Assembly (NCBI GenBank): GCA_963808345.1
Contig: CAWEFM010000001.1
Span: 472,884-536,883, forward strand
DNA: 64,000 nucleotides
DNA from: an uncultured Actinomycetota bacterium
GTDB lineage: Bacteria > Actinomycetota > Actinomycetes > Mycobacteriales > Mycobacteriaceae
Direction of reading: 5' to 3'
Shown here: in pieces, positions 24,696 through 49,618 of the stretch
Layout of the letters: every line of letters starts with the position of its first letter
Numbering within the stretch: the stretch's first letter is position 1
Position numbers and translations under genes: made by a program
The notes under the pieces: model-generated
What the model was told of the DNA's origin: nothing
What the model saw: the letters and a program-made list of their open reading frames with translations, nothing else
Database searches by the model: none

Positions 24696-24724
24696 TTCAG
24701 TAATTTAAGTATTAATCAACTGAA
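24696..24724. promoter_or_regulatory. Palindromic double operator TTCA-N5-TTAA-N3-TTAA-N5-TGAA between tspO and marR
   Basis: TTCAGTAATTTAAGTATTAATCAACTGAA read directly from the sequence. Confidence 0.7.
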
Positions 24725-24758
24725 TGAACAGGGGAATTACGGATATGCTGTTACCGCC

Positions 24759-25253
24759 ATGGCCACTGACGAGCACTCAAACGGGCGCGCTGCGCTGGAG
24801 TCGACGATTTCGGCTGACCTGCGCGTGCTGTCGGCGGAGTCCGACCAGATCGGTCGGCTGTTCGCTGCGGCCCACGATGTACGCTCGACCGACTTCCGGG
24901 CCCTGCTGCATATCATGGTGGCCGAAACCGCCGGCAAGCCCATTACTTCTGGTGACCTTCGGCAGTTGATGGGGCTTTCCGGTGCGGCGATCACCTACAT
25001 GGTGGACCGGATGATCGACTCCGGTCACCTGCGGCGGGAAACCCATCCGGCCGACCGCCGCAAAGTGGTGTTGCGCTACGCCGAACCTGGGTTCGACACT
25101 GCGCGCGCGTTCTTCGTCCCGCTCGGGATGCACTCCAAGGCTGCTTTGGCCGATTTGGGCGACGACGATTTAGCCGCCGGGCATCGGGTATTCACCGCGT
25201 TGATCACTGCCATGCGGCGCTACCAAGATGAACTCAAAGCCGCGGAAGTCTAG
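24759..25253 (+). CDS. MarR-family regulator (CrtR-like)
   Basis: AITYMVDRMIDSGHLRRETHPADRRKVVL winged HTH. Divergent from tspO-phr. Confidence 0.9.
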   Translation: MATDEHSNGRAALESTISADLRVLSAESDQIGRLFAAAHDVRSTDFRALLHIMVAETAGKPITSGDLRQLMGLSGAAITYMVDRMIDSGHLRRETHPADRRKVVLRYAEPGFDTARAFFVPLGMHSKAALADLGDDDLAAGHRVFTALITAMRRYQDELKAAEV

Positions 25254-25323
25254 CGGCTACAGGGCTCGGTTGTCCTGCCGCGACATCACCTCATCTGCAC
25301 GTAATGAATAGAAACGAACCGGC

Positions 25324-26370
25324 ATGACGCCTGACCAACCCGAGATCGAAACGCGGAAGCGGCGCCACATCGATGTGTGCCTCGAGGAGGCGGTGTCCTA
25401 TTGCGGCGTGACGACCGGCTTGGAGCGTTTCCGGCTGCCGTACAACGCGTTGACGCAGACCAGCCTCGCCCACATCGACCTGTCCACAACCTTCCTCGGT
25501 GTGCCCTTGGAGGCTCCGGTACTGATCGGCGCGATGACTGGCGGCGCGGACATGTCGGGCACCATCAATCGGAACCTGGCCGCAGCCGCACAAGAGCTGG
25601 GCATCGGGATGATGCTCGGGTCGCAGCGGATCATGCTGGACAGCGTGCTCGGCGAGCGGGCCGCACACAGCTTCAGCGTGCGAGACGTGGCCCCAGATGT
25701 GTTGCTGCTGGGCAATATCGGGTTGGCTCAATTGACAAAATCGGCATTACCCGACGTCGCCAAAGCGCTTGACCGGGTAGGGGCTGACGCTTTGGCAGTG
25801 CACACCAATCCGCTCCAAGAAGCAGTGCAGCGCAACGGTGACACCGATTTCTCCGGGTCGTTGGAGCGGCTGCGAGACGTCGCTGCGGCACTGCCGTACC
25901 CGGTGATGCTGAAGGAAGTAGGGCACGGCATCGGTGGCGCCGCTGTCGCGCAACTGATTCAGCCGTCGGGCGAGCCGCCGGTCGCTGCCATCGACGTCGC
26001 GGGAGCAGGTGGCACATCCTGGTCGCGCGTCGAGCAGTTTGTTCGTTACGGCCGATTACGCTACCCCGATCTGGCGGACTGGGGCGTCCCCACAGCGCGT
26101 GCGATCGTCGAGGTCCGCGCGGCGTTGCCGGCCATTCCGCTGGTTGCCTCCGGCGGCATCCGCTCGGGCATGGACGCCGCCAAGGCGCTCGCACTCGGGG
26201 CCGACGTCGTTGCAGTGGCACGGCCGTTGCTGGCTCCGGCGATCGAATCCGCCGATGCCGCAGCGGAATGGCTCCAGCGGTTCGTCGAAGAACTCAAGAT
26301 ATCCCTACATGGTTGCGGCGCAGCGGATTTGACCACCCTGAGCGACGTGGGCGTCGAGCCCTCCCATTAG
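25324..26370 (+). CDS. fni: Type II isopentenyl-diphosphate delta-isomerase
   Basis: RKRRHI, AMTGG, GSQR, HTNPLQE, KEVGHG and AGAGGTSW motifs. Confidence 0.95.
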
Positions 26371-26386
26371 CCGCGGGTGTGCAGAC

Positions 26387-27640
26387 ATGGCAGTGATCTT
26401 GGCTTACGGCTCGCCTGCGCTCGGGCATCTCCTTCCTCTCGGTGCGCTGTTGCGGGAATTGGCAGACCGCGAGCACGAAGTACACCTGCGCACGATGGCC
26501 GCAGAAGTTACGCGGATGCGGCGAGTCGGCCTGCACACCGAGCCGGTCGACCCTCGCATCGAGGCCATCGTGGGGCGAGACTGGACTGCGCACAACGCGT
26601 TGGGCGTGTTGAAGATGTCCATCGATGTGCTGTGCCGGCGGGCGGTTCTGGAGGTCGACGATCTACGCGCGGCAATTGACGATGTTCGGCCGGATGCTCT
26701 CATTGTCGACGCAAACTGTTGGGGCGCAATGTCGTTCGCAGAAGCCGCGGGCATTCCATGGGTGGTGTTCTCGCCTTTCAGCCCGTACCTGCGGGCACGC
26801 GGAGTGCCGCCGTTCGGTCCTGGCCTGCGGCCGTTGCCGGGCATTGTCGGTGAGCTCCGCGACGCGTCGATGCGTCCGTTCGTGCGGTATCTGTTCGATC
26901 GACCGATAGTGCCGCGGGTGAACGCTGTTCGCGACGAACTGGGCGTTCCTGCCATCAGCAGTGTCGACGATCTGATGCGGCGCCCGCAGCTGCTGTTGGC
27001 GGTCGGTGGCGAGCCGTTCGAATATCCGCATGTCGGGTGGGGGGAGGGCGTGCACCTCATCGGCGCCTGCACCTTTCAGCCCGATCCGACGCCGACGCCG
27101 GAGTGGGTGCGCGCAATCGAACGGCCCATCGTGCTGGTGAGCACTTCTTCTATCAAGCAGGCCGACACGGTGCTGGGGTCGACTGCACTGCAGGCGCTGG
27201 CCGGTGAACCGGTTCATGTCATCGCGACGTTCCCTGCGGGGATCCCGCCGGACCTGCCCCGGCCGCCCAACGCCACGGTGTGCCGATTCGTCCCGCACGA
27301 CTTGCTGCTTGAACGCGCCAGCTGCGCTGTCACTCACGGGGGCATGGGCACCACCGTCAAAGCACTCGACCGGGGTGTGCCGGTGTGCGTGGTGCCTTTC
27401 GCCCGCGATCAAGCCGAAGTCGCACGGCGCGTCGAAGTGGCGCGTTGCGGCACCCGGTTGCCGGCCAAAAAGCTCACCGCACTGCGATTACGCGAGTCGG
27501 TGCGCAAAGCGATGACAATGGTCGAGGGCGCCCGCCGGGTTGCCGCCGGCTTCACCGCGACCGGAGGTGTCGCGCGGGGAGCCGACTTGATCGAACAACG
27601 CATTCTGGCCCGTGCCGCAGGCGAATTGGCCGCCGAGTGA
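26387..27640 (+). CDS. Family 1 (MGT/UGT-like) glycosyltransferase
   Basis: GHLLP N-terminal motif and FVPHDLLL...VTHGGMGT...P..RDQ C-terminal UGT signature. Confidence 0.9.
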   Translation: MAVILAYGSPALGHLLPLGALLRELADREHEVHLRTMAAEVTRMRRVGLHTEPVDPRIEAIVGRDWTAHNALGVLKMSIDVLCRRAVLEVDDLRAAIDDVRPDALIVDANCWGAMSFAEAAGIPWVVFSPFSPYLRARGVPPFGPGLRPLPGIVGELRDASMRPFVRYLFDRPIVPRVNAVRDELGVPAISSVDDLMRRPQLLLAVGGEPFEYPHVGWGEGVHLIGACTFQPDPTPTPEWVRAIERPIVLVSTSSIKQADTVLGSTALQALAGEPVHVIATFPAGIPPDLPRPPNATVCRFVPHDLLLERASCAVTHGGMGTTVKALDRGVPVCVVPFARDQAEVARRVEVARCGTRLPAKKLTALRLRESVRKAMTMVEGARRVAAGFTATGGVARGADLIEQRILARAAGELAAE

Positions 27641-27692
27641 CCTGCGGCGTCAACTGCCGGCCGAACCCGGGCGCCGCAACGGTTTTCGACGA

Positions 27693-28250
27693 TTACCGGG
27701 CGACCTTGCGGCGTCGATCCGTGGGTGCCGAAGCCTGATCGACGATCGGTGCCGGTCGATGGTCCAGCAGTTCGGTCTCGAAACCAGACATGGCGCTGAC
27801 CATCGCCATGAACACGCGGTGCGCGGCCACCAGGTCTCGTTCATCAAGCGCTGCCAGCGTGCGGCGCAGATGGACCCCGAGCGGACCGAAGAAGTCGTGC
27901 GCCAGAGCCAGCCCGCTGGGCTCATAACGAAGCAGCGACTTTCGCCGGTCACCGGGATCGGCTTCACGCCGGATGTGCCCGGCCTCGATCATTCGGTCGA
28001 CGAGATAGGTGATAGCGGCCGACGACAAGTCCATCCGTTCCCGCAACTGGGCCAATGTCAGCGGGATGCCCGCCGTTTCAGCCACCATGATGTGCAGCAA
28101 CGCGTGAAAATCTCCGCCACTCACGTCGTTTCGGCGGGCGAAGTAACGACCTATGCGGTCGGACTGCGCAGTTACCGCCCGCATATCAGCCGACATCAGC
28201 TTTTCCAGCTCAGCTCGGCTGAGCGGTACATTGCTGCCGCGTTTGGCCAC
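27693..28250 (-). CDS. MarR-family regulator, paralog of 24759..25253
   Basis: DFHALLHIMVAETAG and AITYLVDRMIEAGHIRRE.DP.DRRK motifs. Confidence 0.9.
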   Translation of the reverse strand: MAKRGSNVPLSRAELEKLMSADMRAVTAQSDRIGRYFARRNDVSGGDFHALLHIMVAETAGIPLTLAQLRERMDLSSAAITYLVDRMIEAGHIRREADPGDRRKSLLRYEPSGLALAHDFFGPLGVHLRRTLAALDERDLVAAHRVFMAMVSAMSGFETELLDHRPAPIVDQASAPTDRRRKVAR

Positions 28251-28341
28251 CTGACCGCATCCTTCTCAGCGATACATTCGAACGTATTGGCGCCAGTGCG
28301 AACCACCACCGGTTGACCAGGATTCTAGGCAACCTCAGGCG

Positions 28342-28743: not shown

Positions 28744-28824
28744 GGCTCGTTCCCATCGTCAGTGAGCTGCGGCGCATCGATGCAGGGTGCGCCGGGCGGA
28801 TCGCTGTCCGCCTAACCTGTCACT

Positions 28825-29678: not shown

Positions 29679-29785
29679 CCGTTCTGTTACGTCGACCACT
29701 CAACAACTAGAAACACACGCGTTCCCAAGGTGACCGAAAACACTCCCAACGCCGCCGTTGCCAATCCACAGCTGGGCCTATATTC

Positions 29786-29805
29786 TTAACTATTAACTTC
29801 CTGAA
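29786..29805. promoter_or_regulatory. Operator-like box TTAA-N3-TTAA-N5-TGAA upstream of ANTAR-qcrB
   Basis: TTAACTATTAACTTCCTGAA. Confidence 0.65.
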
Positions 29806-29929
29806 ATTGTTCGCTGTTGCGCGCAAGATCGGGGAGGGACACATGACCTTTGCTCTGGGGCGGAGTTGAAGCGTCGGCGACCGTCAAGTTGACGGTCGTC
29901 GCCGCTTGCCTAGCTGCGAAAGGGATTCC

Positions 29930-30673
29930 GTGGTCAATCAGGCCAGTGTGGCGTCGCTCAAACCGGGCGACTCGATCCTGATTCGGATGAGCGATCTGGT
30001 CCGGGATCTGGAGAGCCAGGTCGGCAGCGACTTCAGTTTGGGATCGACCCTCGATGAGCTGACCTTGAATGCGGCGCAACTTGTTCCCGGCGCGGCGTAT
30101 GCGGGTATCACGGTCAGGACGAGAACTGGTGACATTGATACCGTCGCGGCCACCGACCGTTATCCGGTCCTGCTCGACGATATTCAGCGCAGTTACAACG
30201 AAGGGCCGTGTCTGTTTGCGGCTCAGCACGATCACCTTGTTCGGGTGGACGATCTGCGTACCGAGGACCGCTGGCCGCGGTATTCCCGCGAAGCGGTGGC
30301 CACGACGCCGATTCGCTCGGTGATGTCTTTGCAATTGTTTGCTCACCGCCCCAGCTCCGCGTCGTTGAACCTGTACTCAGAGCACGTCAAAGCGTTCGGT
30401 GCGGAGTCGGCGACCTTGGGGTTGGTCTTCGCCGCGTACACGACGTTGACGTGGAGCATGTTGAGCCGTGATCAGCAGTTCAGAAAAGGGCTGAGCTCTC
30501 GGGACACGATCGGTCAAGCCAAGGGCATTCTGATGGAGCGCTTTCATATCAGTGCCGAGGCCGCATTCGAGCTGCTCAAGCGGCGCTCGCAAGAGTCCAA
30601 CACGCCTGTCATCGCGATCGCTCGTCGACTCACCGACCCCGGCGAGCGGGACTTCTGGAAGCCTGCGTCATGA
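29930..30673 (+). CDS. GAF-ANTAR domain protein
   Basis: [13 protein letters not shown] and LNLY GAF motifs, [15 protein letters not shown]...AFELL...SQ ANTAR. Start at 29930 or 29987. Confidence 0.9.
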
Positions 30674-32382
30674 GTGTGAAAATCAGTGCGCCGAAGCTGG
30701 ACGTAGGCGCGGTGCTGGCCCGGCAGGGCGATGACATCGACTCGCGGTATCACCCGTCGGCGGCGGTGCGGCGGCAACTGAACAAGGTGTTCCCGACGCA
30801 CTGGTCGTTCTTGCTGGGCGAGATCGCGCTCTACAGCTTCATCGTGTTGCTGCTCACCGGCGTGTACCTCACGTTGTTCTTCGACCCGTCGATGACCGAG
30901 GTGACCTATAACGGCGTCTACCAGCCGCTGCGCGGTGTGGAGATGTCGAAGGCCTACGCGTCGACGTTGGACATCAGCTTCGAGGTGCGCGGCGGCTTGT
31001 TCGTGCGGCAGGTGCACCACTGGGCGGCGTTGCTGTTCGCCGCGTCGATCATGGTGCACCTGGCGCGGGTGTTCTTCACCGGAGCGTTCCGCCGGCCGCG
31101 GGAGGCCAACTGGGTGATCGGGTCGCTGCTGCTGATCCTGGCGATGTTCGAGGGCTTCTTCGGTTATTCGCTGCCCGACGACCTGCTTTCCGGCACCGGT
31201 ATCCGCGCAGCGCTGTCCGGGATCACGATGAGTATTCCGGTGGTCGGAACCTGGTTGCACTGGGCGTTGTTCGGTGGCGACTTCCCGGGCACGGTGCTGA
31301 TGCCGCGGTTGTATGCCATTCACATCCTGCTGTTCCCCGGCATCATCCTGGCCTTGATCGGCGTCCACTTGGCGATGGTCTGGTTCCAGAAGCACACCCA
31401 GTTTCCCGGGCCCGGACGTACCGAGACCAACGTCGTCGGGGTGCGGGTGATGCCAGTGTTCGCGGTCAAGTCTGGCGCGTTCTTCGCCCTGACCGTGGCA
31501 GTGCTCGGCTTGATGGGGGGGTTGTTGCAGATCAACCCGATCTGGAATATGGGCCCCTACAAGCCTTCACAGGTGTCGGCGGGTTCGCAGCCGGACTTCT
31601 ACATGATGTGGACTGACGGCTTGATCCGCATCTTCCCGCCCTGGGAAATCTATTTCGGCCACCACACGGTTCCGCAGTCGGTCTGGGTGGCGTTGCTGAT
31701 GGGTGTGATCCTCGGGCTGTTGACGGTGTATCCGTTCCTGGAGAGGCGGTTTGCCCGGGACGATGCCCACCACAACCTGCTGCAACGGCCGCGCGACGTG
31801 CCGGTGCGCACTGCGGTGGGGTCAATGGCGATCGCCCTGTACATCGTGCTGACCTACAGCGCGATGAACGACATCATCGCCTACAAGTTCCACGTCTCGC
31901 TCAACGCCACAACCTGGGTCGGGCGTATCGGCATGGTGGTGGTGCCGCCGCTGGTCTACTTTGTCACCTACCGCTGGTGCGTTGCTTTGCAACGCAGCGA
32001 CCGCCAAGTGCTCGAGCACGGTATCGAGACCGGCATCATCAAACGCCTGCCACACGGCGCTTACATCGAACTGCACCAGCCCCTCGGCCCGGTCGACGGC
32101 CACGGCCATCCGCTGCCGCTGACCTACCAGGGCACCGCACTGCCGAAGAAGATGAACAAATTGGGCTCGGCCGGTACTCCCGGTCACGGCAGCCTGTTGC
32201 GCGCCGACCCTGCGGGCGAGGACGCCGCCTTGCGCCGCGCCGTCCACACCGGCGAACAGCGTGCCCTCACCGCCCTACGGGAACATCAGCACACCAACGG
32301 CTCGGGCAACGGCTCAAGCAATCACTCGAGCAATGGATCCACTAACGGTCACCGCAACGGGCGCGGCGGCTCCGACGGTTAA
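30670..32382 (+). CDS. qcrB: Cytochrome bcc complex cytochrome b subunit, stand-alone paralog
   Basis: KVFPTHWSF, heme-ligand His residues (HHWAA, VHLAR, IHIL, VHLA) and [12 protein letters not shown]. No qcrC/qcrA adjacent. Confidence 0.95.
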
Positions 32383-33190: not shown

Positions 33191-33519
33191 CAACGAGGGT
33201 GTGACGACGAGATTTCACCGACCGGTGCTGAGGGCAAAATCACGCTGAAGATCGCGCGCCGACCGGGCCCGGAGTGGTTGGGGCACTGTCGTTCCGGGTA
33301 ATCGAACCGCCATGGGTGAATGGGCGCAGTCAGATGGCCGTGCGATGGACCGGGTCAGAAACCGTGTTCGGATCTCGCCGGTCCCGGATGCAGCAGGGAC
33401 GTTAGCGCCGGGCCCAGAAGCGGTCCTGCCGAGACGCTGAGCATCAGCAGGCGGAGGGCGGAGCAGGAAGTGCCGTCTCCATAGCATTGGTCCGATTCCT
33501 TTGGGCAGGAGAAGTCAGT

Positions 33520-33831
33520 ATGGGCGATAACGCAGCAGACCCTATCGATCATCACCGCACGACTCGTGCGCACGCCGGTCAGAACATGAAGAACACCGCG
33601 GCGATGCCGGGACTGGTGTTCGTCGTGTTCGCAGTTACCGCCTTTGTCCTCGCCTTGGCTTCCTTGGCGAGCCGGCACTACCATGCGGCCGAGATATGCG
33701 TCGGTGTGGCCGTTGCTGCGGCGGTGATAGCATCGAGTTGGCTTTACGCCCAACGCAGACGGGTGCGCACCGTTGAAGATGAGTGGATGAAAGAGCACCC
33801 TGAGGCGGCGCCGGCTCCACCGGACAGCTGA
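33520..33831 (+). CDS. usfY: UsfY-like membrane protein
   Basis: DPIDHHRTTRAHAG..MK...MPG followed by two TM helices. Confidence 0.8.
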   Translation: MGDNAADPIDHHRTTRAHAGQNMKNTAAMPGLVFVVFAVTAFVLALASLASRHYHAAEICVGVAVAAAVIASSWLYAQRRRVRTVEDEWMKEHPEAAPAPPDS

Positions 33832-33875
33832 CGCGGCTGATTGGGAGAGCCGCCCGGCAGCTACAGTCCTCGCGG

Positions 33876-34211
33876 TTACTTCTTCAGGGGGTCGTGGCCC
33901 CAATTCATCAGTGAGTATCGCCATCTGGTGTCCCCGACACCTCCCGAGGGCTGCTGCTTGAGGTGCCGCTTCGCGTAGCCGACAACCTTGCGCATATGGG
34001 CGTAATCGTCTTTTGTCAGTTCACTTTCCTTCGATTTCAGGATTGCGATGATGTGTCGTCCGCTGGCGTGTCCAGTGGATTCCTTGCCACCGGATTTCTG
34101 GCCGACCTCCTTCGATTCGTCGGTCTTAAGCCACTTTTCGAGTTCGGAAGCCGTCATGTTGACGGTCTTGCGGAACTCTTCCCAAGCTTGATTGTCGTCA
34201 TCCGAAGGCAT
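33876..34211 (-). CDS. DUF3140 family protein
   Basis: VNMTASELEKWL...WRYSLMNWGHDPLK. Confidence 0.9.
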   Translation of the reverse strand: MPSDDDNQAWEEFRKTVNMTASELEKWLKTDESKEVGQKSGGKESTGHASGRHIIAILKSKESELTKDDYAHMRKVVGYAKRHLKQQPSGGVGDTRWRYSLMNWGHDPLKK

Positions 34212-34241
34212 CGACGCTCTCCCAGTTCAGAAGTGTTGTGG

Positions 34242-34463
34242 CTACTTCTTATCAGGCTTCAAAGCATTCGGCTTGTGCACCGCGTCGGCGCCGGTCTTGT
34301 CACTTTCCACCCGGTACTGCGGATCGTCCTTCGCGGCGCGAACCTGTCGGCCGCCGGCCTTCGTGTCGCTGGTGATCTTCTCTTCGACGGTGCCTTTCAC
34401 GTTCTGACCGTGACTTTTCCACTGCACCTTGTCACCTTTTTTGAAGTCTTTCTCGCCCATCAT
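34242..34463 (-). CDS. DUF2945 / HVA1-like Tudor domain protein
   Basis: FKKGDKVQWKSH...YRVESDKTG..AVHKP.AL with GAAAGGA RBS. Confidence 0.85.
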   Translation of the reverse strand: MMGEKDFKKGDKVQWKSHGQNVKGTVEEKITSDTKAGGRQVRAAKDDPQYRVESDKTGADAVHKPNALKPDKK

Positions 34464-34585
34464 GTTCCTTTCGTTTTGCGGAAAGTGGTCTGCGCGGATC
34501 AGACATGGTTTACCCGATGCGTGGGTAAGCAATCGCCTGGCAGCGGTTGTTGTAAAGCAACATCTGCAACCCAGTCAGTTGCCAG

Positions 34586-34619
34586 TTGACACAAAAATCT
34601 TAAATATTAAGCTAGTGAA
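34586..34619 (+). promoter_or_regulatory. SigA-type promoter TTGACA-N16-TAAGCT overlapped by operator TTAA-N3-TTAA-N5-TGAA
   Basis: TTGACA at 34586-34591, TAAGCT at 34608-34613, operator at 34600-34619. Confidence 0.7.
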
Positions 34620-39131: not shown

Positions 39132-39153
39132 GCTGCGGCAGGAGTCGACAGAC

Positions 39154-40395
39154 GTGGACGACACCGAAGTGCTGATCATCGGCGCGGGCCTGGCCGGCCT
39201 GCGCTGCGCTGCTGTGCTGACCTCGGCGGGCCGCGACGTGGCGGTGTGGGAAGCCGGCGAGACGGTCGGCGGCCGGGTGCGCACCGACGTCATCGACGGC
39301 TTCCGGTGTGACCGGGGCTTTCAAGTGCTGAATCCGGCCTACCCGGAATTACAGCGGGCAGTGGATGTTTCTGCTTTGCGACTACAGAATTTCGCCGCCG
39401 GAGTCATCGTTCGCCGCGATCAAGGCACTGCCCAGTACGTCCATCCGCTTCACCATCCTGGCCGGCTGCTTCCGATGCTGAGGAAGGCAGCGGTCGGGCC
39501 GCGTGAGTTGGTGGCCCTGACCCGCTGGGTCGCGCCGGCGCTTCGGCCCAAAGCCCTCAAGTCGCTGCACCGCGCAGATCTCAGTCTCGCGGAGGCGTTG
39601 CAGCGGGCCGGAGTACGCGGTGAAGTGCGCAGGGTGATCGACCGGTTCCTGGCCGGTGTGCTCCTCGACGACACTGGATCGAGCTCCAACGCGTTCGCAT
39701 TGTTGCTCGCGCGCACCTTCGCCCTCGGTGTGCCCGCCTTGCCAGCCGAGGGCATGCATGCCCTGCCGCTGCTACTCGCCAATGACCTGGGTGATCGAAT
39801 CGCGCTGCAGCGCACTGCGAGTCGCATCGACCGCGACTCAGCCGGCTGGCGGGTTTCGGACGGTGAGCATCAGGTGCGGGCGCGACAGGTGGTGGTCGCC
39901 GCCGACCCTACGACAGCGGCGGCTCTGACGGACCAAGCGGCACCGCAGATGCACGGTGTCGTCACCGACTGGTGGGCCAGCGACGAGCCGCCGCCCGGTG
40001 AAACGCTGCTGTGGGTCGACGGCCGTGCGCCTGCGCGCGGACCGGTGCTCAACGTCGCGGTGATCAGTGCGGTCGCACCGACATATGCGCCGCCGGATCG
40101 GCATCTGATCGCGGCGTCGGCGTTACCCGGTCGCGACGGCACGGCACCGTCCGAGACCGCGACGCGCCGACATGCCGCCGATATTCTCGGTGTGGACGCC
40201 GGTCGGTGGGAGTTGGTGAAACGACACGTTATTGGCGAAGCACTGCCGGCGCAGTTGCCACCGCTCAGCGTGCGCCGACCGGTGCGCACGCCCGCCGGAA
40301 TCTGGTTGTGCGGCGACCACCGCGACACCGCATCCATTCAGGGGGCGTTGGTCAGCGGCCGCCGCACCGCTGCAGCGCTACTGCGCGCTCGTTAG
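39154..40395 (+). CDS. FAD-dependent oxidoreductase (amine oxidase / phytoene desaturase-like)
   Basis: GAGLAG, GGRVRTD, DRGFQV and CGDH...SIQGALVSG motifs. Confidence 0.9.
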   Translation: MDDTEVLIIGAGLAGLRCAAVLTSAGRDVAVWEAGETVGGRVRTDVIDGFRCDRGFQVLNPAYPELQRAVDVSALRLQNFAAGVIVRRDQGTAQYVHPLHHPGRLLPMLRKAAVGPRELVALTRWVAPALRPKALKSLHRADLSLAEALQRAGVRGEVRRVIDRFLAGVLLDDTGSSSNAFALLLARTFALGVPALPAEGMHALPLLLANDLGDRIALQRTASRIDRDSAGWRVSDGEHQVRARQVVVAADPTTAAALTDQAAPQMHGVVTDWWASDEPPPGETLLWVDGRAPARGPVLNVAVISAVAPTYAPPDRHLIAASALPGRDGTAPSETATRRHAADILGVDAGRWELVKRHVIGEALPAQLPPLSVRRPVRTPAGIWLCGDHRDTASIQGALVSGRRTAAALLRAR

Positions 40396-41945: not shown

Positions 41946-41955
41946 GCCGCCCCAA

Positions 41956-42954
41956 CTAGGGTGTGCCGGCGCGCAACTGGTAACGCCGCTCGGCATAGGC
42001 CAGGTCGTCACGCCACAGTTTGCCGGCCGCGTAGCGCATCAGCGGGGTGATCAGTGGCGCCGCGGTCAACGCCCGCGTGAAGCCCGAGCGGTCTGATTGT
42101 GCGATGACGGCTTCGGTCACCGCGGTGCGCGGCCGGCCGTCGGAGTGCAGAGACAGTGGCGTGGCATGGGTTTCGACGACCGAGCCGGCGCCTTCCCCGT
42201 CGACGATGCGCATGACGATGCAGCGGGCCTGCGGACTGGTGAATTCCGCGACGACGGGCACCCCCAGCCGGCCGAGGCGGAAGGTCACCGCGACCAGGAA
42301 ACGGTCGCTTTCCTCGGTCGGCGTGGTGAGAACTTCGAGCCGGGTGAACGAGTACGGGTGAAACCACGCGCCGTGCCATGGATCAAGCCGGTTGGCGATG
42401 ATGTCTGAAGGCTCACAGACACCGACCACCTGCGTTGCGGCAGCCAGGGTGTCGCCGATCGGCCGGGTCGACATGACCGGCTCCTCTAGCGGCGCCTCAC
42501 CGCCCGCGGCGTCCAAGCGCACCCAGATCAGCACACCGTCATCGTGACTGGGATATGTCGTCCAACCGAACCCGTCGAAGTCACCGTCGATCGTCAACCC
42601 GTGCCAGCGGCAGATCAGGGCGCCGCAGTGCACGGTCGCGGTGGCGAGATCCGCCCCGAGATGCGGGCAACTGCGCGGACCGACGCACAATTCGCCGTTC
42701 TGACCGCGCCACGCGACGATCTCCACACCGGCGACCCGCGTGCCGAGGGCACGACCGGCGGCCAGCGAACGGCTCTCGGCGAACACGTACCAGTTGCCGG
42801 TGGGTCGGCGCTGCGAGCGGTTCAACGCGGCGTCGATGATGGCCGGTTGTGCGTCGCGGTACGTCGGACGTTGACCAGCCCAGCTGATCGGCGCCATCAG
42901 TTGCAGCGGCCAGTCTTTCGGCCAACGTCGCCGCACACGGTCGTGAATGTTCAT
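41956..42954 (-). CDS. crtV: Rieske 2Fe-2S + DUF5914 protein (Streptomyces CrtV-like)
   Basis: CPHLGA...CRWHG Rieske motif and ANRLDPWHGAWFHPYSF. Coupled to crtU. Confidence 0.8.
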   Translation of the reverse strand: MNIHDRVRRRWPKDWPLQLMAPISWAGQRPTYRDAQPAIIDAALNRSQRRPTGNWYVFAESRSLAAGRALGTRVAGVEIVAWRGQNGELCVGPRSCPHLGADLATATVHCGALICRWHGLTIDGDFDGFGWTTYPSHDDGVLIWVRLDAAGGEAPLEEPVMSTRPIGDTLAAATQVVGVCEPSDIIANRLDPWHGAWFHPYSFTRLEVLTTPTEESDRFLVAVTFRLGRLGVPVVAEFTSPQARCIVMRIVDGEGAGSVVETHATPLSLHSDGRPRTAVTEAVIAQSDRSGFTRALTAAPLITPLMRYAAGKLWRDDLAYAERRYQLRAGTP

Positions 42955-44495
42955 CGCCGGCGCTGCCTTTCTCGGGTGGCGAGCCACCGCAGCACCGGAG
43001 ATCGACCTTCGTTGGCGACGGTGTGCAGCGGATGGCCTGCAAGCCCCCATTGTGCCAACAGGTGGTTGGCGGCCGACCAGCCGCTGGTCGCCGCACGCTC
43101 CATGAGCGCTACCGGTAGGTCGATACGGATGCCGTCACCGGCCAGGACCAGCCCGGGCTGAGGCGAGATGACGTGCGGTCGGTCCGCGTAGGTGCCGGGC
43201 GCGAACAACGGACAATCGCTTCGGTACAGCACGCGTTCGCGCACTACCTTCGCCTCGGCCGTCTCCGGATAGATCTCCTGCAGCCGGCGCAGCATCGCGT
43301 TGCCGGGAAGCTCGTCGGGCAGTGCGTACGAATGCAATTCGACTACCGAGCCGTGATGACGCTGCGCCCACTGGGCGGCTTCGTGCTCGTAGCGCTCCAG
43401 GACGCTGATGTTGTCGATCGGCTCGTGGCCGGCGGTGCCCAGAAACGCGGGCCGGTGCGCGGCCACGGGTCGATCGAGCCACAGCCGGTGCACGGCGAAG
43501 GTCGGGGCGGTGCGCAACCGCTGGATGTTGTCCCGCCACGATGCGTCGCCGAGATCTCCCGACGCGTCCACCAGATGCTGCAGACCGGTGACATCGGTGG
43601 CCAGCACCACCGCGTCGGCGTCCAAGTGGTCTTCGCGACCGGTGCGCACCCGAAAGGTGGTTTCCGGCGCGGTTCCGCCGATCGTCTGGATGCTTGCCAC
43701 TTCGGTGCCCAGCCGGAACCGCACCCCGCGCCCGGTCAAGTACTTCCGCAGCGGGTTCCACAGTGCGACGTCGTAATTGGCGTTCGGGACATCGAAGATC
43801 AGGCCCTCACTGGAGCCGAGGAAGTAGATGTGAAACATGGTCGCCAGCTCGGCGGCCGACAGCTGGGTTGGATCGGCGAAGAAGCTGCGGGAGAACACCT
43901 CGAAGGCGAGATGACGCGCAGGCGTCGGGAAATTGATTGCTTTGAGAAAAGTTTCGGCGTCGGTATGGTCCAAGTCGTCGTAAATCCGCGGCACCGACAC
44001 TGACGCCAGCGGCGCAGCGGCGCGGGCATTGATCCGTGCCAGGTCGCTGAATCGGAAGGTGGGACTACGCAAAGCGAACAGTAAGGCGTTCCACGGCGGT
44101 GTTCGTGGCAGGCCGCGGAAAGTATCGCGACGGCCGGCGCCGTCGATGAGCGGGTAGTCGTCGACCGGAGTCAACATGGACAGCTGCGGGTCGACGCGGC
44201 GCAATAGCGCGCGCAAGTTGTAGTACTGGCGAAAGAACGCGTGGAATCCGCGGTTCATCGCCAGATCGGTACCGTCGGGGCCTTGTTGCTCCTCGGTCCA
44301 GCCGCCCACCCGACCGCCCAGGTAGCGTTCGCGTTCGACGACGTCGACGCTGACGCCGCGTTCGGCCAAACCGGTCGCCGCGGTCAGGCCCGCGATGCCA
44401 GCGCCGACGACGACTGCCCGCGGCCGCGGTGACATGGCGTCAGCGGTGGGCAGCCCGCCGGGCGCCGGGATCGTGTGGTGGCGCCGGTCGATCAT
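42951..44495 (-). CDS. crtU: Isorenieratene synthase (beta-carotene desaturase/methyltransferase)
   Basis: GAGIAG, RGFHAFFRQYYN and LPVALMERAA motifs. Confidence 0.9.
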   Translation of the reverse strand: MIDRRHHTIPAPGGLPTADAMSPRPRAVVVGAGIAGLTAATGLAERGVSVDVVERERYLGGRVGGWTEEQQGPDGTDLAMNRGFHAFFRQYYNLRALLRRVDPQLSMLTPVDDYPLIDGAGRRDTFRGLPRTPPWNALLFALRSPTFRFSDLARINARAAAPLASVSVPRIYDDLDHTDAETFLKAINFPTPARHLAFEVFSRSFFADPTQLSAAELATMFHIYFLGSSEGLIFDVPNANYDVALWNPLRKYLTGRGVRFRLGTEVASIQTIGGTAPETTFRVRTGREDHLDADAVVLATDVTGLQHLVDASGDLGDASWRDNIQRLRTAPTFAVHRLWLDRPVAAHRPAFLGTAGHEPIDNISVLERYEHEAAQWAQRHHGSVVELHSYALPDELPGNAMLRRLQEIYPETAEAKVVRERVLYRSDCPLFAPGTYADRPHVISPQPGLVLAGDGIRIDLPVALMERAATSGWSAANHLLAQWGLAGHPLHTVANEGRSPVLRWLATRERQRRR

Positions 44496-45217
44496 TGCGG
44501 CGCGATACCGACGAAAGTGTGGACGATGTTGCTTTCCCAGCCGGGCATGGTTTCGCTGCAAACCGCGGTGAACCCGGCGTCGCGCAGCCGTCGGCGCAGC
44601 CGGTCGGCGCCGTCGAAAGAGAGCACGCTGCGCCACAAATGGCGGTAGAGCGTGGTGTCGCGGGTGTGCCGCCAGCCAGCGGGAATGATGATGCCCCAGC
44701 ACACCGCATGCCATACCGCGGTGGCCGCACGCGAGTCCCGCACCGAATAGTCGTGCACCGCCAGAGTGCCGCCTGGCCGCAGCAGCGTCCGGAAGGCCTG
44801 CAACTGGCTGTCGGGGTCGGCAAGATTGCGTATCAGGTATGCCGCGAAGATGGCGTCGAACGGGCCGCTGACGCCGTGATCGGCGAGCTTCTCGATGGGT
44901 GAGTGCACGAACTGCACCGACGGCGGCCATAGCTTGGCCCGTGCGGTGTCGAGCATTCCCTGCGACGCGTCGACGGCGACGATCTCGGCCTCCGGCGCGA
45001 CTGTGAGCAGCGCTGCCGTCGATGCGCCGGTTCCACAGCCGGCATCCAGCAGCCGTAATCCTTTCCCGCGGCCGGGGATTTGCATGCGGCGCGCCGAGCG
45101 GCGCAGGTGCGTGTGATAGCCGGGATTCGCACCGACCAGTCGGTCGTACGCGGCGGCTCCGACGTCGAAAGCGGCCGGCACCTCGCCGCGCGGCAGGCCG
45201 GTGTTACCCACGCTCAC
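44492..45217 (-). CDS. crtT: SAM-dependent methyltransferase of the carotenoid cluster (CrtT-like)
   Basis: LLDAGCGTGAST and YDRLVGANPGY motifs. Lies between the cyclase genes and crtU. Confidence 0.8.
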   Translation of the reverse strand: MSVGNTGLPRGEVPAAFDVGAAAYDRLVGANPGYHTHLRRSARRMQIPGRGKGLRLLDAGCGTGASTAALLTVAPEAEIVAVDASQGMLDTARAKLWPPSVQFVHSPIEKLADHGVSGPFDAIFAAYLIRNLADPDSQLQAFRTLLRPGGTLAVHDYSVRDSRAATAVWHAVCWGIIIPAGWRHTRDTTLYRHLWRSVLSFDGADRLRRRLRDAGFTAVCSETMPGWESNIVHTFVGIAPQ

Positions 45218-45515
45218 GTTGGCGCTCCCATCCCAGCAGTACCGCGGTGACGAGGGCGAAGCCGAAAAGGAAGTCCTCGACCGGAATGTCAAAGGGGAAC
45301 CGCAATCCGGTGATGTGCGCGCTGTTGTAGATCACCACGGGCGCGCTCAACTTGGTCAGCCAGCCGTCGACGAGGCTTTGGAACCCGAACACGATCAGCA
45401 TCGACAGCCAGTAGGCGGGTCGCCGGAACAGGCCGGTCCGCAACACGCCGACCTCGACAGCGCAGACGACGACTGCGGCCAGTACGGCCGGCACGGTGTA
45501 GCCCAGCCCGCTCAC
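45204..45515 (-). CDS. crtYd: Heterodimeric lycopene beta-cyclase subunit
   Basis: Small TM protein with VDGWLT...IPVEDFLFGF. Confidence 0.85.
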   Translation of the reverse strand: MSGLGYTVPAVLAAVVVCAVEVGVLRTGLFRRPAYWLSMLIVFGFQSLVDGWLTKLSAPVVIYNSAHITGLRFPFDIPVEDFLFGFALVTAVLLGWERQRERG

Positions 45516-45835
45516 CGGCGCTCGACCCGGTCGAGGATGGCGTTGACCGCGTCGTAGGTCAGCAGTGCGCACACCGGGATGACGAAGAAGAACAACACTT
45601 CCTCGATCGGCACCCGCACCGGAAGGTAAAGGCCGATGATGTAGGCGGGGTTGTATGCCCACACATGAGCGGCGACCGCCACTTCATCCCACACCAAAAA
45701 CACTGCCGCAACCGGTAACACGGCACCCGCGAGCCGGCGTGGCCGGCGGTACACGCCGGGTCTGAACACCTCCAAGGGCATGGTGATCGCCAGGCATGCG
45801 GCGAGCAGAATCAGGTACTGCCAGCGGTCGGTCAT
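45512..45835 (-). CDS. crtYc: Heterodimeric lycopene beta-cyclase subunit
   Basis: FLVWD...PIEEVLFF..IP motif. Confidence 0.85.
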   Translation of the reverse strand: MTDRWQYLILLAACLAITMPLEVFRPGVYRRPRRLAGAVLPVAAVFLVWDEVAVAAHVWAYNPAYIIGLYLPVRVPIEEVLFFFVIPVCALLTYDAVNAILDRVERR

Positions 45836-46779
45836 ACCGAACCAGGTGCGCGTTCGCCGGACGAGCGCGCTCGCCACGAGCGGACCAAGCCGGCGCCGGC
45901 AACCTGGAGGCGTCGCGCGATGCCGACGCTGGCGCGGTGGCTGAATACCGCGAAGTCGCTGGCTTCGATCCGATCCAGGATCTCCGAGTACAGCGTCAAC
46001 GCCGTTGTCACACAGGGCCGCGAGCGCAGCGCGAGCAGCGGTACTCCGGCGGCGGCGAACCGGTAGACACCCCGGGTGATGTGATGCTGTTCGGCGAGTG
46101 CGCGCCGGACGCGCTCGTCGGTGCACCGATGGGCGTGACACCACATCAACAGTTCCCGGTCGACGCCGTGGCCGGCCAGTTCGTCGGCGGGCAGGTACAC
46201 CCGCCCACGCTCCAAGTCTTCGTCGACGTCGCGCAGGAAGTTCGTGAGCTGAAAAGCAGTGCCCAGCGCGGCGGCGTAAGGTGCGGCTTCTTCTGCGGGA
46301 CCGACCGTGCCGAGTATCGGTAGGAGTTGCAGGCCAATGGCTTCGGCGGAACCCTTGATGTATCGGTTAAGCGAGGTGCGGTCGGGATAGTCGGCGATGG
46401 TCAGATCCATCCGCATCGAGGCCAGGAAGTCGTCGAACAGTTCCGAGGCGATTCCGTAGCGGCGTGCGGTGTGGGTGACCGCCGCGAGCACCGGGTCGTC
46501 GTGGTTGTCGCCGCCGGTGAAGAAGCGCTCGCAGAGCTGCTGTAGCCGCTCGGCCCGAGCGTCGGTGGGCAGACCGGAGTCCAAGTCATCGAGGATGTCG
46601 TCGGCGTGCCGGGCAAAACCGTAGAGCGCGTGCACCGGCGGACGTTGATCCGGTGCTAGTAACCGGGTGGCCAGGAAGAACGTCCGCCCGTGCCGGGCGT
46701 TGATCTCGCGGCACCGTCGGTATGCTGCGCGCAACCGCGGGTCGTCGATGCCGGCGGCGTCCAATTCGGTGCGGATCAC
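45832..46779 (-). CDS. crtB: Phytoene synthase
   Basis: HGRTFFLAT, ADDILD and FQLTNFLRDVDED..RGRVYLP motifs. Confidence 0.95.
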   Translation of the reverse strand: MIRTELDAAGIDDPRLRAAYRRCREINARHGRTFFLATRLLAPDQRPPVHALYGFARHADDILDDLDSGLPTDARAERLQQLCERFFTGGDNHDDPVLAAVTHTARRYGIASELFDDFLASMRMDLTIADYPDRTSLNRYIKGSAEAIGLQLLPILGTVGPAEEAAPYAAALGTAFQLTNFLRDVDEDLERGRVYLPADELAGHGVDRELLMWCHAHRCTDERVRRALAEQHHITRGVYRFAAAGVPLLALRSRPCVTTALTLYSEILDRIEASDFAVFSHRASVGIARRLQVAGAGLVRSWRARSSGERAPGSV

Positions 46780-48305
46780 GGCAGCTGCGCTTCGGTCGCA
46801 GCGGCGGTCGTCGCTCGGGTGGACCGAGTGACGGTGCCGGTGATGCGGTCGGCGGCCAGCCGCCCGGAGATCAACGCGGTCGGAACACCGACGCCGGGCA
46901 CCGTCGATGACCCGGCCAGCACCGCGTTGGGCGCGCCGCGCACGGTGTTGGCCGGCCGGAACGGTCCGGTTTGGCCGAAGGTGTGGGCCAGCGCGAAGGG
47001 GGTCCCAAACGCCATGTCCTGGCGCGCCCAGTCGGCCGGAGTGGTGACCTGCAGTATCTGGGCGTCGCTGCGCAACCCGGGCAGTAGACGATCTGCGACG
47101 GTGTCGACGATCTGCTCGGCGTAGGCGTTGCCGCTGCGCGCCCAGTCGATCGCACTGCGTTGCAGGTTGGGCGCCGGTGCGAGCACGAAGAGCAGGTCAC
47201 GCCCGGCCGGAGCGAGAGCCGGATCACCGGCTGTGGGTCTAGTGACCAACAGCGAGGGATCACGCATCAGTTGGCCGTCGCGGATGATGTCGGTGAACGT
47301 CTGGTCCCACGAGGCGCCGAAGGAAATGGTGTGATGCGCGGTGTCGGCGGGGACGCTGCGGCAACCCACATGCACCACCACCGCCGACGGTGAAGGCCGC
47401 AGCGCCAGCGGGCGTCGGGGCTGGTGCCCCAGCAGCGAATAACTTGATGGCAGTTCGGTTGTCAGAACCACTGCGTCAGCAGCGATGCGCCGGCCGCCGT
47501 CGGTGTGCACCCCGGCGACGCGGTCGCCGGTGCGCTCGAGTTCGGTCACCTTCTCGCCGTAGTGAAACAGCACGCCGGCGTCGGCGGCTGCGGCGGCCAG
47601 GCTGTCGGATAGCGCCCGCATCCCCCCGACGGGAAAGTACACGCCGGAGATTGTGTCCATGTAGGCGATCACCGCGTAGGCCGCCAGCGCGTCCTGCGGT
47701 GCGACCCCGGCGTACAGCGACTGGAAGGTGAACACTCGCCGTAGCCGCTCGTCGGCGATGTAGCGCCGCACCATGGTGTCCCACTTGCGGAACCCGCCAA
47801 TCATCAACAGCCGCGCAAGATTCGGCGTCAGCAGTGACAGCGGCGAATCGAAGTTCTTCGCGATGAATCCGTCGAATTCGGTGCAATACAGGCGGGTCAG
47901 CCACTCGCGAAGCCGCCGATACCCCGCAGCTTCGCGCGGGCCGGCGAAGTGCTCGATGTTCGTGGCCATCCGGTCGGCGTCGGCGTGCACGTCGAGGGCG
48001 CTGCCGTCGGCGAAGGTGGCGCGGTATGCCGGATCCACCGGCCTAAGGGTGAGCCGACGCTCCCGCGTCTCGCCCACGGCGGCGAAGACGTCGTCGATGA
48101 TGTCAGGCATCGTCAGGACCGTGGGGCCGGTGTCCAACCGGTAGCCGTCGATGTCGGCCCGGCCGGCGCGCCCGCCCGGCCACGGTTCGCGTTCAACGAC
48201 GGTGACCTGCCTGCCGCGCCCGGCCAGATGCAGTGCGGCCGCCAAGCCGGCCAGACCAGCGCCGACGACGACCACATGATCGGTGTTTCCCGGTACGGTG
48301 CGCAT
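46776..48305 (-). CDS. crtI: Phytoene desaturase
   Basis: GAGLAG, DTGPTVLTMP, QTGPFRP and PGVGVP..LISG.LAA motifs. Confidence 0.95.
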   Translation of the reverse strand: MRTVPGNTDHVVVVGAGLAGLAAALHLAGRGRQVTVVEREPWPGGRAGRADIDGYRLDTGPTVLTMPDIIDDVFAAVGETRERRLTLRPVDPAYRATFADGSALDVHADADRMATNIEHFAGPREAAGYRRLREWLTRLYCTEFDGFIAKNFDSPLSLLTPNLARLLMIGGFRKWDTMVRRYIADERLRRVFTFQSLYAGVAPQDALAAYAVIAYMDTISGVYFPVGGMRALSDSLAAAAADAGVLFHYGEKVTELERTGDRVAGVHTDGGRRIAADAVVLTTELPSSYSLLGHQPRRPLALRPSPSAVVVHVGCRSVPADTAHHTISFGASWDQTFTDIIRDGQLMRDPSLLVTRPTAGDPALAPAGRDLLFVLAPAPNLQRSAIDWARSGNAYAEQIVDTVADRLLPGLRSDAQILQVTTPADWARQDMAFGTPFALAHTFGQTGPFRPANTVRGAPNAVLAGSSTVPGVGVPTALISGRLAADRITGTVTRSTRATTAAATEAQLP

Positions 48306-48333
48306 TACGCGCACGCTACCGGGGCCGGGTGCG

Positions 48334-49482
48334 TCATTGCGCGCGCTCCGTGCAAACGGCGGCCATGTTGGTCAGCGCAAACCGCACCGATTCGTCAACT
48401 AACATGTCGCTCACATGGTTTCGCGCTGACGCCACGCGGTCGGTGATCATTTCCTCGATCCACTGCACGGCGCCGGTCTCGACGATGATTGCCCGCCAGC
48501 GCTGCACCGCGTCGTCGTCGAGCTCGTCGCTGTTCATCAGTTCGGCGAGCTGACGCCGGGTCGGGCCATCGGCCAGTTGGTGTGCGGCCATCACAAGGCT
48601 GGTCGGCTTGCGTTCGACCAAGTCGCCACCGCTGGGCTTGCCGGTGGCCGACGTCGACCCGAAGACGCCGAGGATGTCGTCGCGCAGCTGGAAAGCTTCC
48701 CCGACCGCAGTGCCGTAACGGCCGAGCTTGGACAGGATGTGGTCGTCGCAGCCCGCCATCGCCGCACCGATCTCTAAAGGCCGGCGCACCGTGTAGTTGC
48801 CGGATTTGCGGCGGGCCACGTCAAGCACCGCTTCCAGCGCAGGGAGATCGCGAACGTCACCGGCCAGGTCGGCGAACTGGCCCACCGCCAGTTCGGTGCG
48901 CATAGCGTCGTATCGCGGCCAAGCATCGCGCAGCGCCCGCCGATCCACACCGCTCTCGCGCAGCATCTGCTCGGCCCAGATCAGACACAGATCGCCGAGC
49001 AGGATGGCGGCCGATTCGCCGAACTTGCCTGCCGAGCCGGACAGACCGCGGTCGCGGTGCCAGTGCCCGAGTTGGATGTGCGCTGCGGGACGGCCGCGCC
49101 GGGACGCCGAGCCGTCCATGACGTCGTCTTGCAGCAGGGCGAAGGCGTGCAGCAACTCCAGGCTGGCGGCTGCGCCGAGGGCCGCGTCGCCGGGCATGGC
49201 GCCGCTCAGCCAGCCCAGGTACATGAAGGTCGACCGTAGGCATTTGCCCCCGGACACGAAGTTCATCAGGATGTCGCCGGCGACCTCGACGCCGGCTCCG
49301 CGCAACTCCTGCTCGCAGCGCTCGGCGACGAATTCTGCGACCCGCCGCAAGACCGCGCCGCGCACATCGGAACGCCAAGCGTCGAAGTTGGCGGGATCAG
49401 CCCACAACCCGCTGGTCAGCGCTTCGTGCTCTGCGACCGGCACCAACGACAGACCCCGCGTCAAGGCCCGTGACTCGCCCAC
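48334..49482 (-). CDS. crtE: Geranylgeranyl diphosphate synthase
   Basis: GGKCLR, QDDVMD...RRG and FQLRDD motifs. Start uncertain (GTG at 49482 with GAGAGGGG RBS). Confidence 0.9.
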   Translation of the reverse strand: MGESRALTRGLSLVPVAEHEALTSGLWADPANFDAWRSDVRGAVLRRVAEFVAERCEQELRGAGVEVAGDILMNFVSGGKCLRSTFMYLGWLSGAMPGDAALGAAASLELLHAFALLQDDVMDGSASRRGRPAAHIQLGHWHRDRGLSGSAGKFGESAAILLGDLCLIWAEQMLRESGVDRRALRDAWPRYDAMRTELAVGQFADLAGDVRDLPALEAVLDVARRKSGNYTVRRPLEIGAAMAGCDDHILSKLGRYGTAVGEAFQLRDDILGVFGSTSATGKPSGGDLVERKPTSLVMAAHQLADGPTRRQLAELMNSDELDDDAVQRWRAIIVETGAVQWIEEMITDRVASARNHVSDMLVDESVRFALTNMAAVCTERAQ

Positions 49483-49589
49483 CGACGCCCCTCTCACAAG
49501 CTCTGGTGCTCGCCGGCTAGAACGGCTCAACGTCTGCGTTGATACCCGTTGACATCTTTGGCAAACCGACGGCGGCAGCACCCAATCTC

Positions 49590-49618
49590 TTCACAACCTT
49601 AAAGGTTCACTTTTTTAA
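49590..49618. promoter_or_regulatory. Tandem operator TTCA-N5-TTAA-N3-TTCA-N5-TTAA upstream of crtE
   Basis: TTCACAACCTTAAAGGTTCACTTTTTTAA. Confidence 0.7.

Follow-up and report, generated by a model that had tools for sequence, protein, structure and literature searches.

An AT-rich box at the promoters of a light-protection gene island in soil Mycobacterium, putative operator of a CrtR-like MarR repressor

The light response of non-phototrophic mycobacteria has a repressor, CrtR, that is known from genetics; its DNA target and its full gene set are the question raised here by a light-protection gene island of an uncultured member of the Mycobacteriaceae. The island lies in a 64,000-nucleotide stretch (the window; positions 472,884 to 536,883 of contig CAWEFM010000001.1, assembly GCA_963808345.1). 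An earlier reading, made from the letters of the window alone (the sequence-only reading), had proposed that four AT-rich sites form a common operator for a light regulon under a local regulator of the MarR family. Our analysis indicates that a 20–29-bp AT-rich box marks the promoters of this island in soil Mycobacterium and is most likely the binding site of a CrtR-like MarR repressor.

We scanned the assembly that holds the window (G000; 3.74 Mb, 66% GC, 81% complete) with a 20-nucleotide core pattern, TTAA-N3-TTAA-N5-TGAA; the full 29-bp box reads TTCA-N5-TTAA-N3-TTAA-N5-TGAA. Throughout, G labels denote genomes and L labels loci, and G061–G064 are the four closest relatives of G000. Exact cores stand at 24696(-), 24705(+), 29786(+) and 34600(+), and a one-mismatch core stands at 49590(-). 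The first two are the halves of a single 29-bp palindrome, which leaves four boxes, listed here with their position weight matrix (PWM) scores:

24696..24724, no strand assigned: box 1, full palindrome in the divergent tspO/MarR1 intergenic region; 34–37 bits
29777..29805 (core 29786–29805), + strand: box 2, three-quarter site 5' of GAF-ANTAR/qcrB; 28 bits
34586..34619 (core 34600–34619), + strand: box 3, overlapping TTGACA-N16-TAAGCT; 33.5 bits
49590..49618, - strand: box 4, degenerate (TTAA-N5-TGAA-N3-TTAA-N5-TGAA), directly upstream of crtE; about 20 bits

All four sites lie where the sequence-only reading had placed them, the neighboring genes it named agree with Pfam at every box, and box 3 overlaps the promoter-like sequence as described (TTGACA at 34586–34591, a 16-nucleotide spacer, and TAAGCT at 34608–34613). 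Its claim of one shared geometry holds for the exact core at boxes 1–3, whereas box 4 is degenerate, and boxes 2 and 3 are three-quarter sites in which a conserved left flank, CTATA(A/T)(A/T)C, takes the place of TTCA-N5. The core did not occur in 100 dinucleotide shuffles of the window. Exact cores were found nowhere else in the 3.74-Mb assembly (0.0096 per genome expected from base composition), and the motif is not common in unrelated promoters of this genome.

The box is conserved in position throughout much of the genus. Of 36 same-genus genomes, 22 contain the exact core, as against none of 24 from other families of the order; a reversed-pattern control gave no match in the genus. In a family-wide sample of 300 genomes from 33 genera, it was found in 9 of 23 same-genus genomes and in 5 of the 277 others, the latter being about the level of the reversed control, and in this sample the core is essentially confined to Mycobacterium. 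Locus counts were taken from the best 80 matches of a scan with a MarR alignment, all of them from Mycobacterium and mostly from soil metagenome-assembled genomes; M. asiaticum, M. szulgai, M. gordonae, M. intermedium, M. bohemicum, and M. montefiorense are among these 80, and M. kansasii and M. marinum are not. The box lies at most 150 bp upstream of 78 of the 80 orthologues of MarR1, the repressor gene next to box 1, and in 73 of the 80 its end is 33–35 bp before the start codon. An upstream box was likewise found at 41 of 44 SDR-DUF2867 genes, and the island ANTAR gene belongs to a box-headed unit at 34 of 38 loci (14 directly adjoining the box, others after DUF2945/DUF3140, and 4 in the box–ANTAR–qcrB form of the window).

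The surroundings recur as well, with 50 related sites for the tspO|box|MarR1 context and 16 for the DUF2945|box|SDR context. The usual layout of the island is phr< tspO< (mmpL<) BOX MarR1> idi2> (GT>) MarR2< ANTAR< (DUF3140<) DUF2945< BOX SDR> ... crtYdYcBIE< BOX, where GT is a glycosyltransferase gene and MarR2 is a paralogue of MarR1. Species without the island have the full palindrome between a MarR gene and a divergent MmpL gene in 8 of 10 tested cases, and two boxes separate crtE and MarR (crtE<box box MarR>) in L075, L098, L008, L009, L013, and L022. The box thus recurs at crtE, tspO-phr/mmpL, SDR-photolyase, and ANTAR promoters across dozens of species. A PWM and orthologous-promoter scan of the kind proposed in the sequence-only reading found it positionally conserved upstream of MarR1, SDR, crtE, tspO-phr, and mmpL orthologues. 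G061–G064 each have exactly four box places (tspO|MarR1, ANTAR-qcrB, SDR, and crtE), and these match the four of the window. Among the 36 same-genus genomes, 21 have both box and MarR gene, 1 has the box alone (83% complete), 7 have the MarR gene alone, and 7 have neither (Fisher p = 0.003, with kin that are not independent).

Which protein would bind the box? MarR1 belongs to the MarR family by its Pfam matches (MarR_2/MarR) and MarR2 by its 57% identity to MarR1. The NCBIfam MarR match is weak for both (29 bits, cut-off 240), and profile matches in the PDB are to generic MarR structures only. In a maximum-likelihood tree, all box-adjacent MarRs fall into one clade, whether their partner is tspO/mmpL or crtE, and MarR1 is among them, which makes it a CrtR-type regulator and the prime candidate binder. 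A regulator gene adjoining or divergent to crt, fni, or mmpL is found as MarR1>idi2 in the window and as crtE- and mmpL-divergent pairs in relatives, and a TTAA-containing box is present in silico both at crtE and at the promoter of the MarR gene itself.

These features are close to those of known CrtR systems. Binding of Corynebacterium glutamicum CrtR needs TTAA in the operator, and the published oligonucleotide contains TTAA-N5-TTAA (PMC5401885). Its footprint covers 52 bp over the -35 and -10 elements of crtE, which implies several dimers and fits multi-dimer sites (PMC6739363). A 15-bp TTAA motif is common to other Actinobacteria, with no mycobacterium among the species tested (PMC7432914). 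As predicted for the island, the C. glutamicum repressor is an autoregulated MarR protein; it is encoded divergently from crtE, with an essential TTAA in an operator over -35/-10, and is released in vitro by geranylgeranyl pyrophosphate and other isoprenoid pyrophosphates (PMC5401885, PMC6739363, PMC7432914). It differs in having one intergenic site and a phrB that is not light-induced (PMC5401885, PMC6739363, PMC7432914), whereas the mycobacterial box, present at four or more promoters, comes either as a four-quartet palindrome of 29 bp or as a three-quarter site of 20 bp.

In M. kansasii, crtE, mmpL1, and fni are repressed by a CrtR that shares 36% identity with that of C. glutamicum; the CRT locus (crtEIBYcYd-mmpL1-crtR-fni) and phrB-tspO-mmpL2 are both induced by light, and the signal is speculated to be a photo-oxidation product (PMC9861118). 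This CrtR too is a MarR-type repressor beside fni and crt. The boxes flank gene classes that are CrtR-repressed or light-induced in that species (crtE, mmpL, crtR, fni, and phrB-tspO), both in the window and in M. asiaticum, M. szulgai, M. gordonae, M. intermedium, and M. bohemicum. In contrast to M. kansasii, the window has pigment, photolyase, and regulator genes fused in one island with a second MarR, orthology being assigned by synteny. The M. kansasii paper defines no operator or motif, with no text match for "motif," "operator," "qcrB," or "ANTAR," and in its list of light-induced loci we noticed no SDR-DUF2867, FeS-BCP, DUF2945, or DUF3140 gene, terms that were not searched for (PMC9861118). 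In the literature searched, we found no mycobacterial CrtR operator, no link between ANTAR and light, and no description of the SDR/FeS-BCP/photolyase and DUF2945-ANTAR units as targets or of a box-controlled extra qcrB. The novelty that the sequence-only reading had seen in this link is therefore partial: co-induction of pigment, photolyase, and TspO genes is known at the transcript level (PMC9861118), whereas the operator and the ANTAR, qcrB, and SDR/FeS-BCP members were not found described. What the comparison supports is a predicted MarR regulon of the CrtR type, for which a mycobacterial operator is newly defined and further members are proposed.

Fixed spacing, co-occurrence with the MarR gene, recurrence across species, and the TTAA element all favor the proposal of the sequence-only reading that a local CrtR-type MarR links the four units through one shared operator. 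We estimate a probability of roughly 0.8 that the boxes are operators of the CrtR-type repressor MarR1, with MarR2 perhaps also binding, and that they control a photoprotection regulon. Direct observation covers the motif itself, the fact that it is unique in the genome, conserved in position, and found together with MarR, and the phylogeny of the MarRs; from these we infer the identity of the binder, repression, and the response to light or a ligand. The genes of the island and one further promoter element are as follows:

22850–24187, - strand: phr1, CPD (cyclobutane pyrimidine dimer)-type photolyase (Pfam DNA_photolyase and FAD_binding_7), leftward from box 1
24184–24690, - strand: tspO (Pfam TspO_MBR), leftward from box 1
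24759–25253, + strand: MarR1, CrtR-type MarR repressor of 164 amino acids without cysteine (Pfam MarR_2)
25324–26370, + strand: idi2/fni, type-2 isopentenyl pyrophosphate isomerase-like (Pfam FMN_dh), 3' of MarR1
26387–27640, + strand: glycosyltransferase (Pfam EryCIII-like_C/UDPGT), 3' of idi2
27693–28250, - strand: MarR2, old paralogue of MarR1 without cysteine
Between MarR2 and box 2: an unknown gene, DUF3253, and DUF427
29930–30673, + strand: GAF-ANTAR RNA-binding regulator (Pfam ANTAR, GAF_2), with the GTG start at 29930 taken from the leader alignment
30670–32382, + strand: QcrB, island copy of the cytochrome bc1 subunit (Pfam Cytochrom_B_N_2 and Cytochrome_B; NCBIfam bc1_QcrB_actin)
33487–33831, + strand: UsfY homologue (NCBIfam equivalog, 101.6 bits), 3' of qcrB and conserved in L032–L035; usfY lies near sigF in M. 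tuberculosis
33876–34211, - strand: DUF3140 (Pfam), leftward from box 3
34242–34532, - strand: Hva1_TUDOR/DUF2945 (Pfam), leftward from box 3
34649–36178, + strand: SDR-DUF2867 (Pfam), 3' of box 3
36194–37675, + strand: FeS-BCP/DPRP photolyase-related gene (Pfam)
about 37749–39131, + strand: second photolyase, phr2 (Pfam)
39010–40395, + strand: flavin amine-oxidase-type flavoprotein (Pfam)
41956..49581, - strand: carotenoid operon crtE, crtI, crtB, crtYc/Yd, methyltransferase, desaturase, and Rieske-DUF5914 (Pfam), syntenic in relatives
49543..49567, - strand: SigF-like promoter GGTTT-N15-GGGTA, between box 4 and the crtE coding region, 24 bp 3' of box 4

By Pfam, crtYc and crtYd encode lycopene cyclases and crtE a polyprenyl synthase. 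The order MarR1>idi2>(GT) is conserved among related loci and that of the SDR, FeS-BCP, photolyase, and flavoprotein genes among close relatives. A scan of the entire window with Rfam gave no family at the gathering score, with no dedicated model of ANTAR targets built, and therefore no riboswitch or known ANTAR-target RNA accounts for the leaders.

Several points weigh against the boxes being MarR1 operators. The PWM peaked once at 27 bits on a reversed-sequence control; because of this, the PWM score alone is weak evidence, and the exact pattern and its orthologous conservation carry the case. The orthology of MarR1 to M. kansasii CrtR is assigned from synteny (crtR-fni, crtE-divergent, and mmpL-divergent pairs), and the case as a whole is one of comparative sequence evidence. 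Neither MarR1 nor MarR2 has a cysteine, so no obvious sensing chemistry is visible; thiol-based sensing of the OhrR/MosR type was rejected on the same ground. The remaining points concern crtE. The orthologous box in G061–G064 is a perfect palindrome, TTCA-N5-TTAA-N3-TTAA-N5-TGAA, and relative to it box 4 carries two substitutions at core positions (TTAA to TTCA and TGAA to TTAA), scoring about 20 bits as compared with 28–37 for the other boxes. Moreover, the GGTTT-N15-GGGTA sequence, which from the consensus we take to be of SigF type, lies 3' of box 4 and would as a promoter escape occlusion.

Given this SigF-like motif downstream of box 4, a second input to crtE, out of reach of occlusion by the box, is probable, and the motif suggests dual control of crtE by SigF and CrtR. 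Similar, non-homologous SigF-like motifs lie 3' of the crtE box in L116, L009/L075, L013, and L014. SigF-dependent carotenoid expression in M. smegmatis resembles the present case in this motif by crtE and in the UsfY homologue of the island; it differs in that it would concern the crtE unit only, as a parallel input, and leaves the four boxes unexplained. A second SigF-like match, at 59794, was dismissed as chance, as the sequence there reads like coding sequence.

A different light switch can be set aside. B12-dependent MerR regulators of the CarH/LitR type (Myxococcus, Thermus, Streptomyces, and Bacillus) also repress in the dark and allow light induction of carotenoid genes, often with photolyase, but they differ in regulator family, in operator (tandem direct repeats), and in chromophore. 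The B12-binding_2 profile gave no match in G000 and one in G061; we thus saw no B12 regulator of the CarH/LitR type in either genome, and CarH/LitR was rejected as the regulator of the boxes. The sole match in G061 lies in a 1211-amino acid open frame that we take to be MetH.

Could MarR2 be the binder instead? The boxes might be bound mainly by MarR2 or by mixed MarR1/MarR2 dimers, which would give two-input control (e.g. one ligand per paralogue) instead of simple autoregulation of MarR1. The recognition helix and wing of the two proteins are almost identical (AAITYLVDRMI and DRRK), and MarR2 is co-inherited in the island at most loci, usually closing a box-headed operon; it may therefore share the box sites. 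However, MarR2-type proteins form a separate clade on a long stem (support 100/100) and are never directly box-adjacent, and genomes with a MarR1-type gene only (mmpL pairs) keep the full palindrome. In most relatives MarR2 is the last gene of a box-headed DUF2945-ANTAR-MarR2 unit, whereas in the window it has no upstream box and is preceded by a different sequence, so that we consider a main role for MarR2 at the boxes unlikely. This sequence is an imperfect 16-bp palindrome, ATACGTTCGAATGTAT, at 28272–28287, ∼22 bp upstream of MarR2, and may be a separate operator.

With MarR1 as the favored repressor, the ANTAR-qcrB unit behind box 2 raises the question of how far the regulon extends. The sequence-only reading had included both an ANTAR protein and a respiratory cytochrome b; the box-headed loci counted above support this for ANTAR, whereas the qcrB link is limited to a small clade (G000, G013, and G061–G064) that is known only from metagenome-assembled genomes. 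M. asiaticum and M. gordonae are examples of cultivable species that have the island ANTAR unit. On comparative grounds, membership of ANTAR in the predicted regulon is broad and that of qcrB is clade-restricted. In the window, the GAF-ANTAR and qcrB genes overlap by ATGA at 30670–30673. The ANTAR domain scores 62 bits in Pfam and GAF_2 a weak 21 bits, below its cut-off; the island QcrB is full-length (bc1_QcrB_actin, 763 bits versus a cut-off of 500). The island qcrB, found in this position in the six genomes of the clade, is not in a qcrC-qcrA-qcrB operon; it follows the ANTAR gene, and no qcrC or qcrA is nearby. G013 and G061–G064 have two qcrB copies each, one of them in the island, and the other copy of G063 lies in a qcrC-qcrA-qcrB operon. 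Only the island copy was found in G000, an assembly that is 81% complete. The more distant G001, G014, and G030 have one copy, and G029 has one full-length match and a fragment. In a qcrB tree, three of the island copies (G000, G013, and G061) cluster tightly and branch outside the canonical copies, whereas those of G062–G064 group with their own canonical copies. Because island synteny is identical, a single old duplication, with later gene conversion in the second clade, seems a simpler account than duplication on two occasions.

It could be that box 2, in contrast to the other boxes as real CrtR operators, has no function and arose when the SDR promoter region was duplicated locally, with qcrB regulated by neither light nor CrtR. 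Its left flank is of the SDR type, CTATA(A/T)(A/T)C, suggesting promoter duplication, it is the lowest-scoring exact site, and the box–ANTAR–qcrB arrangement is confined to six genomes. But G000 and G061–G064 all keep the exact core of box 2 at the same place; no other block of the intergenic alignment is as well conserved, and the leader beside it varies in sequence and in length. Because ANTAR orthologues are box-headed in 34 of 38 loci in other arrangements, box control of ANTAR would predate the rearrangement, and we regard a functionless box 2 as quite improbable. A more far-reaching proposal is that a GAF-ANTAR protein and, in one clade, a spare cytochrome b came under the CrtR switch of pigment and photolyase genes, so that light would remodel or repair the haem-containing bc1 complex and add a post-transcriptional tier, MarR1 and MarR2 being two inputs; phototrophs replace photodamaged subunits upon light induction. 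We put this forward tentatively, as an idea that is rather doubtful on present evidence.

The leader of the ANTAR gene in the window (29834–29905) contains an 8-codon upstream open reading frame with a strong Shine-Dalgarno sequence, followed by a GC-rich hairpin. We dropped this as a conserved element, since it occurs only in the window and L032 and not in L033–L035, where the leader is ∼50 nucleotides shorter.

The placement of the boxes suggests how they would act. The three-quarter sites are oriented towards the downstream gene, and the second TTAA with the next two bases gives a -10-like TAAnnT. On the opposite strand, CTATA(A/T)(A/T)C gives TATAGT, likely the -10 of the divergent unit. 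The AT-rich blocks could thus be read mostly as core promoter elements (sigma A -10 hexamers, TAAnnT/TATAAA, back to back) or as the site of a non-local AT-binding protein, and indeed boxes 2–4 and the half of box 1 that faces tspO all read TAAnnT towards the gene (the half facing MarR1 reads TAATCA), CTATAAAC stands 5' of the three-quarter sites, and hexamers resembling a -10 were located at or within boxes 2 and 3 by a consensus scan; yet four near-invariant quartets with fixed N5/N3/N5 spacing and dyad symmetry exceed what a -10 (TANNNT) needs, the outer TGAA would fall at about +1, and the box is in no other promoter of the genome and tracks MarR gene presence, all of which makes this reading very improbable.

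As a MarR1 operator, each box would overlap or abut the -10/+1 region of a promoter, and RNA polymerase would be blocked once the repressor is bound. With any choice of hexamer, the box would lie over -10/+1 of the rightward promoter and over the spacer/-35 of the leftward one, a geometry usual for MarR proteins that repress by occlusion. No box lacks the central TTAA-N3-TTAA, whose centers are 7 bp apart, a spacing also seen in several MarR palindromes; the outer quartets, TTCA/TGAA, might be contacted by the wings or accommodate additional dimers. Six units would stand under the boxes: tspO-phr1, MarR1-idi2-GT (which would be autoregulated), GAF-ANTAR-qcrB, DUF2945-DUF3140, SDR-FeS-BCP-phr2-flavoprotein, and, weakly, the crtE operon. 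Together they would form a photoprotection regulon. By analogy with CrtR of M. kansasii and C. glutamicum, its repression would end in the light or when a small molecule binds, for instance an isoprenoid pyrophosphate or a product of photo-oxidation.

A sharply defined, genus-wide 29-bp operator makes the CrtR regulon directly testable. The predicted regulon reaches beyond pigments and photolyases to the SDR-DUF2867/FeS-BCP operon, the small DUF2945 and DUF3140 proteins, ANTAR, and, in some soil lineages, a second QcrB. A conditionally expressed paralogue would have some interest, since drugs against pathogenic mycobacteria target QcrB. In mycobacterial genetics, the box might also find use as a compact promoter part that responds to light or to a ligand.

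A PWM search of G000 for further sites gave next-best matches of 16–20 bits, inside the range of the reversed control, and none was counted as a regulon member. They lie at two paralogous unknown genes (contig C3), a GAF-ANTAR gene (C4), and a gene of the spore-photoproduct-lyase (SPL) family (C3). The SPL-family site (C3:54377-54404; L113:3377-3404) has a TTAA-N5-TGAA unit with degenerate N3-spaced flanks, 22 bp 5' of the gene. It is kept in three genomes (G000, G061, and G013) and not in G062–G064, and is possibly a weak fifth target linked to UV repair. At C4:437073-437100 (L112:4073-4100), TTAA-N5-TTAA-N3-TTTA stands at the probable start of another GAF-ANTAR gene, one of at least eight such paralogues in G000, with 17 bits, which is within noise. 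The tandem unknown genes (no Pfam match) at C3:424357 and 425763 (L111:4357 and 5763) each have the same repeated upstream block, which contains TGAA-GTA-TTAA and scores 17–20 bits.

Exact boxes also occur outside the island in relatives. G063 has one between ino1 and a phosphoesterase gene, which we treated as chance or species-specific and not as a regulon site. In L020 (G030:C3:163674), one is flanked by the gene of a SOUL haem-binding protein (-) and that of a PE-PPE domain protein (+); in M. kansasii, mild induction by light was seen for a gene of the PE family, and mpk83 and mpk70 are weakly induced as well (PMC9861118). Finally, in many relatives (e.g. L095, L103, and L107) a leader of ∼100 nucleotides runs from box 3 to the SDR start and holds a conserved perfect palindrome, GGGTATACCC, which is absent from the window, where this leader is 29 nucleotides long.

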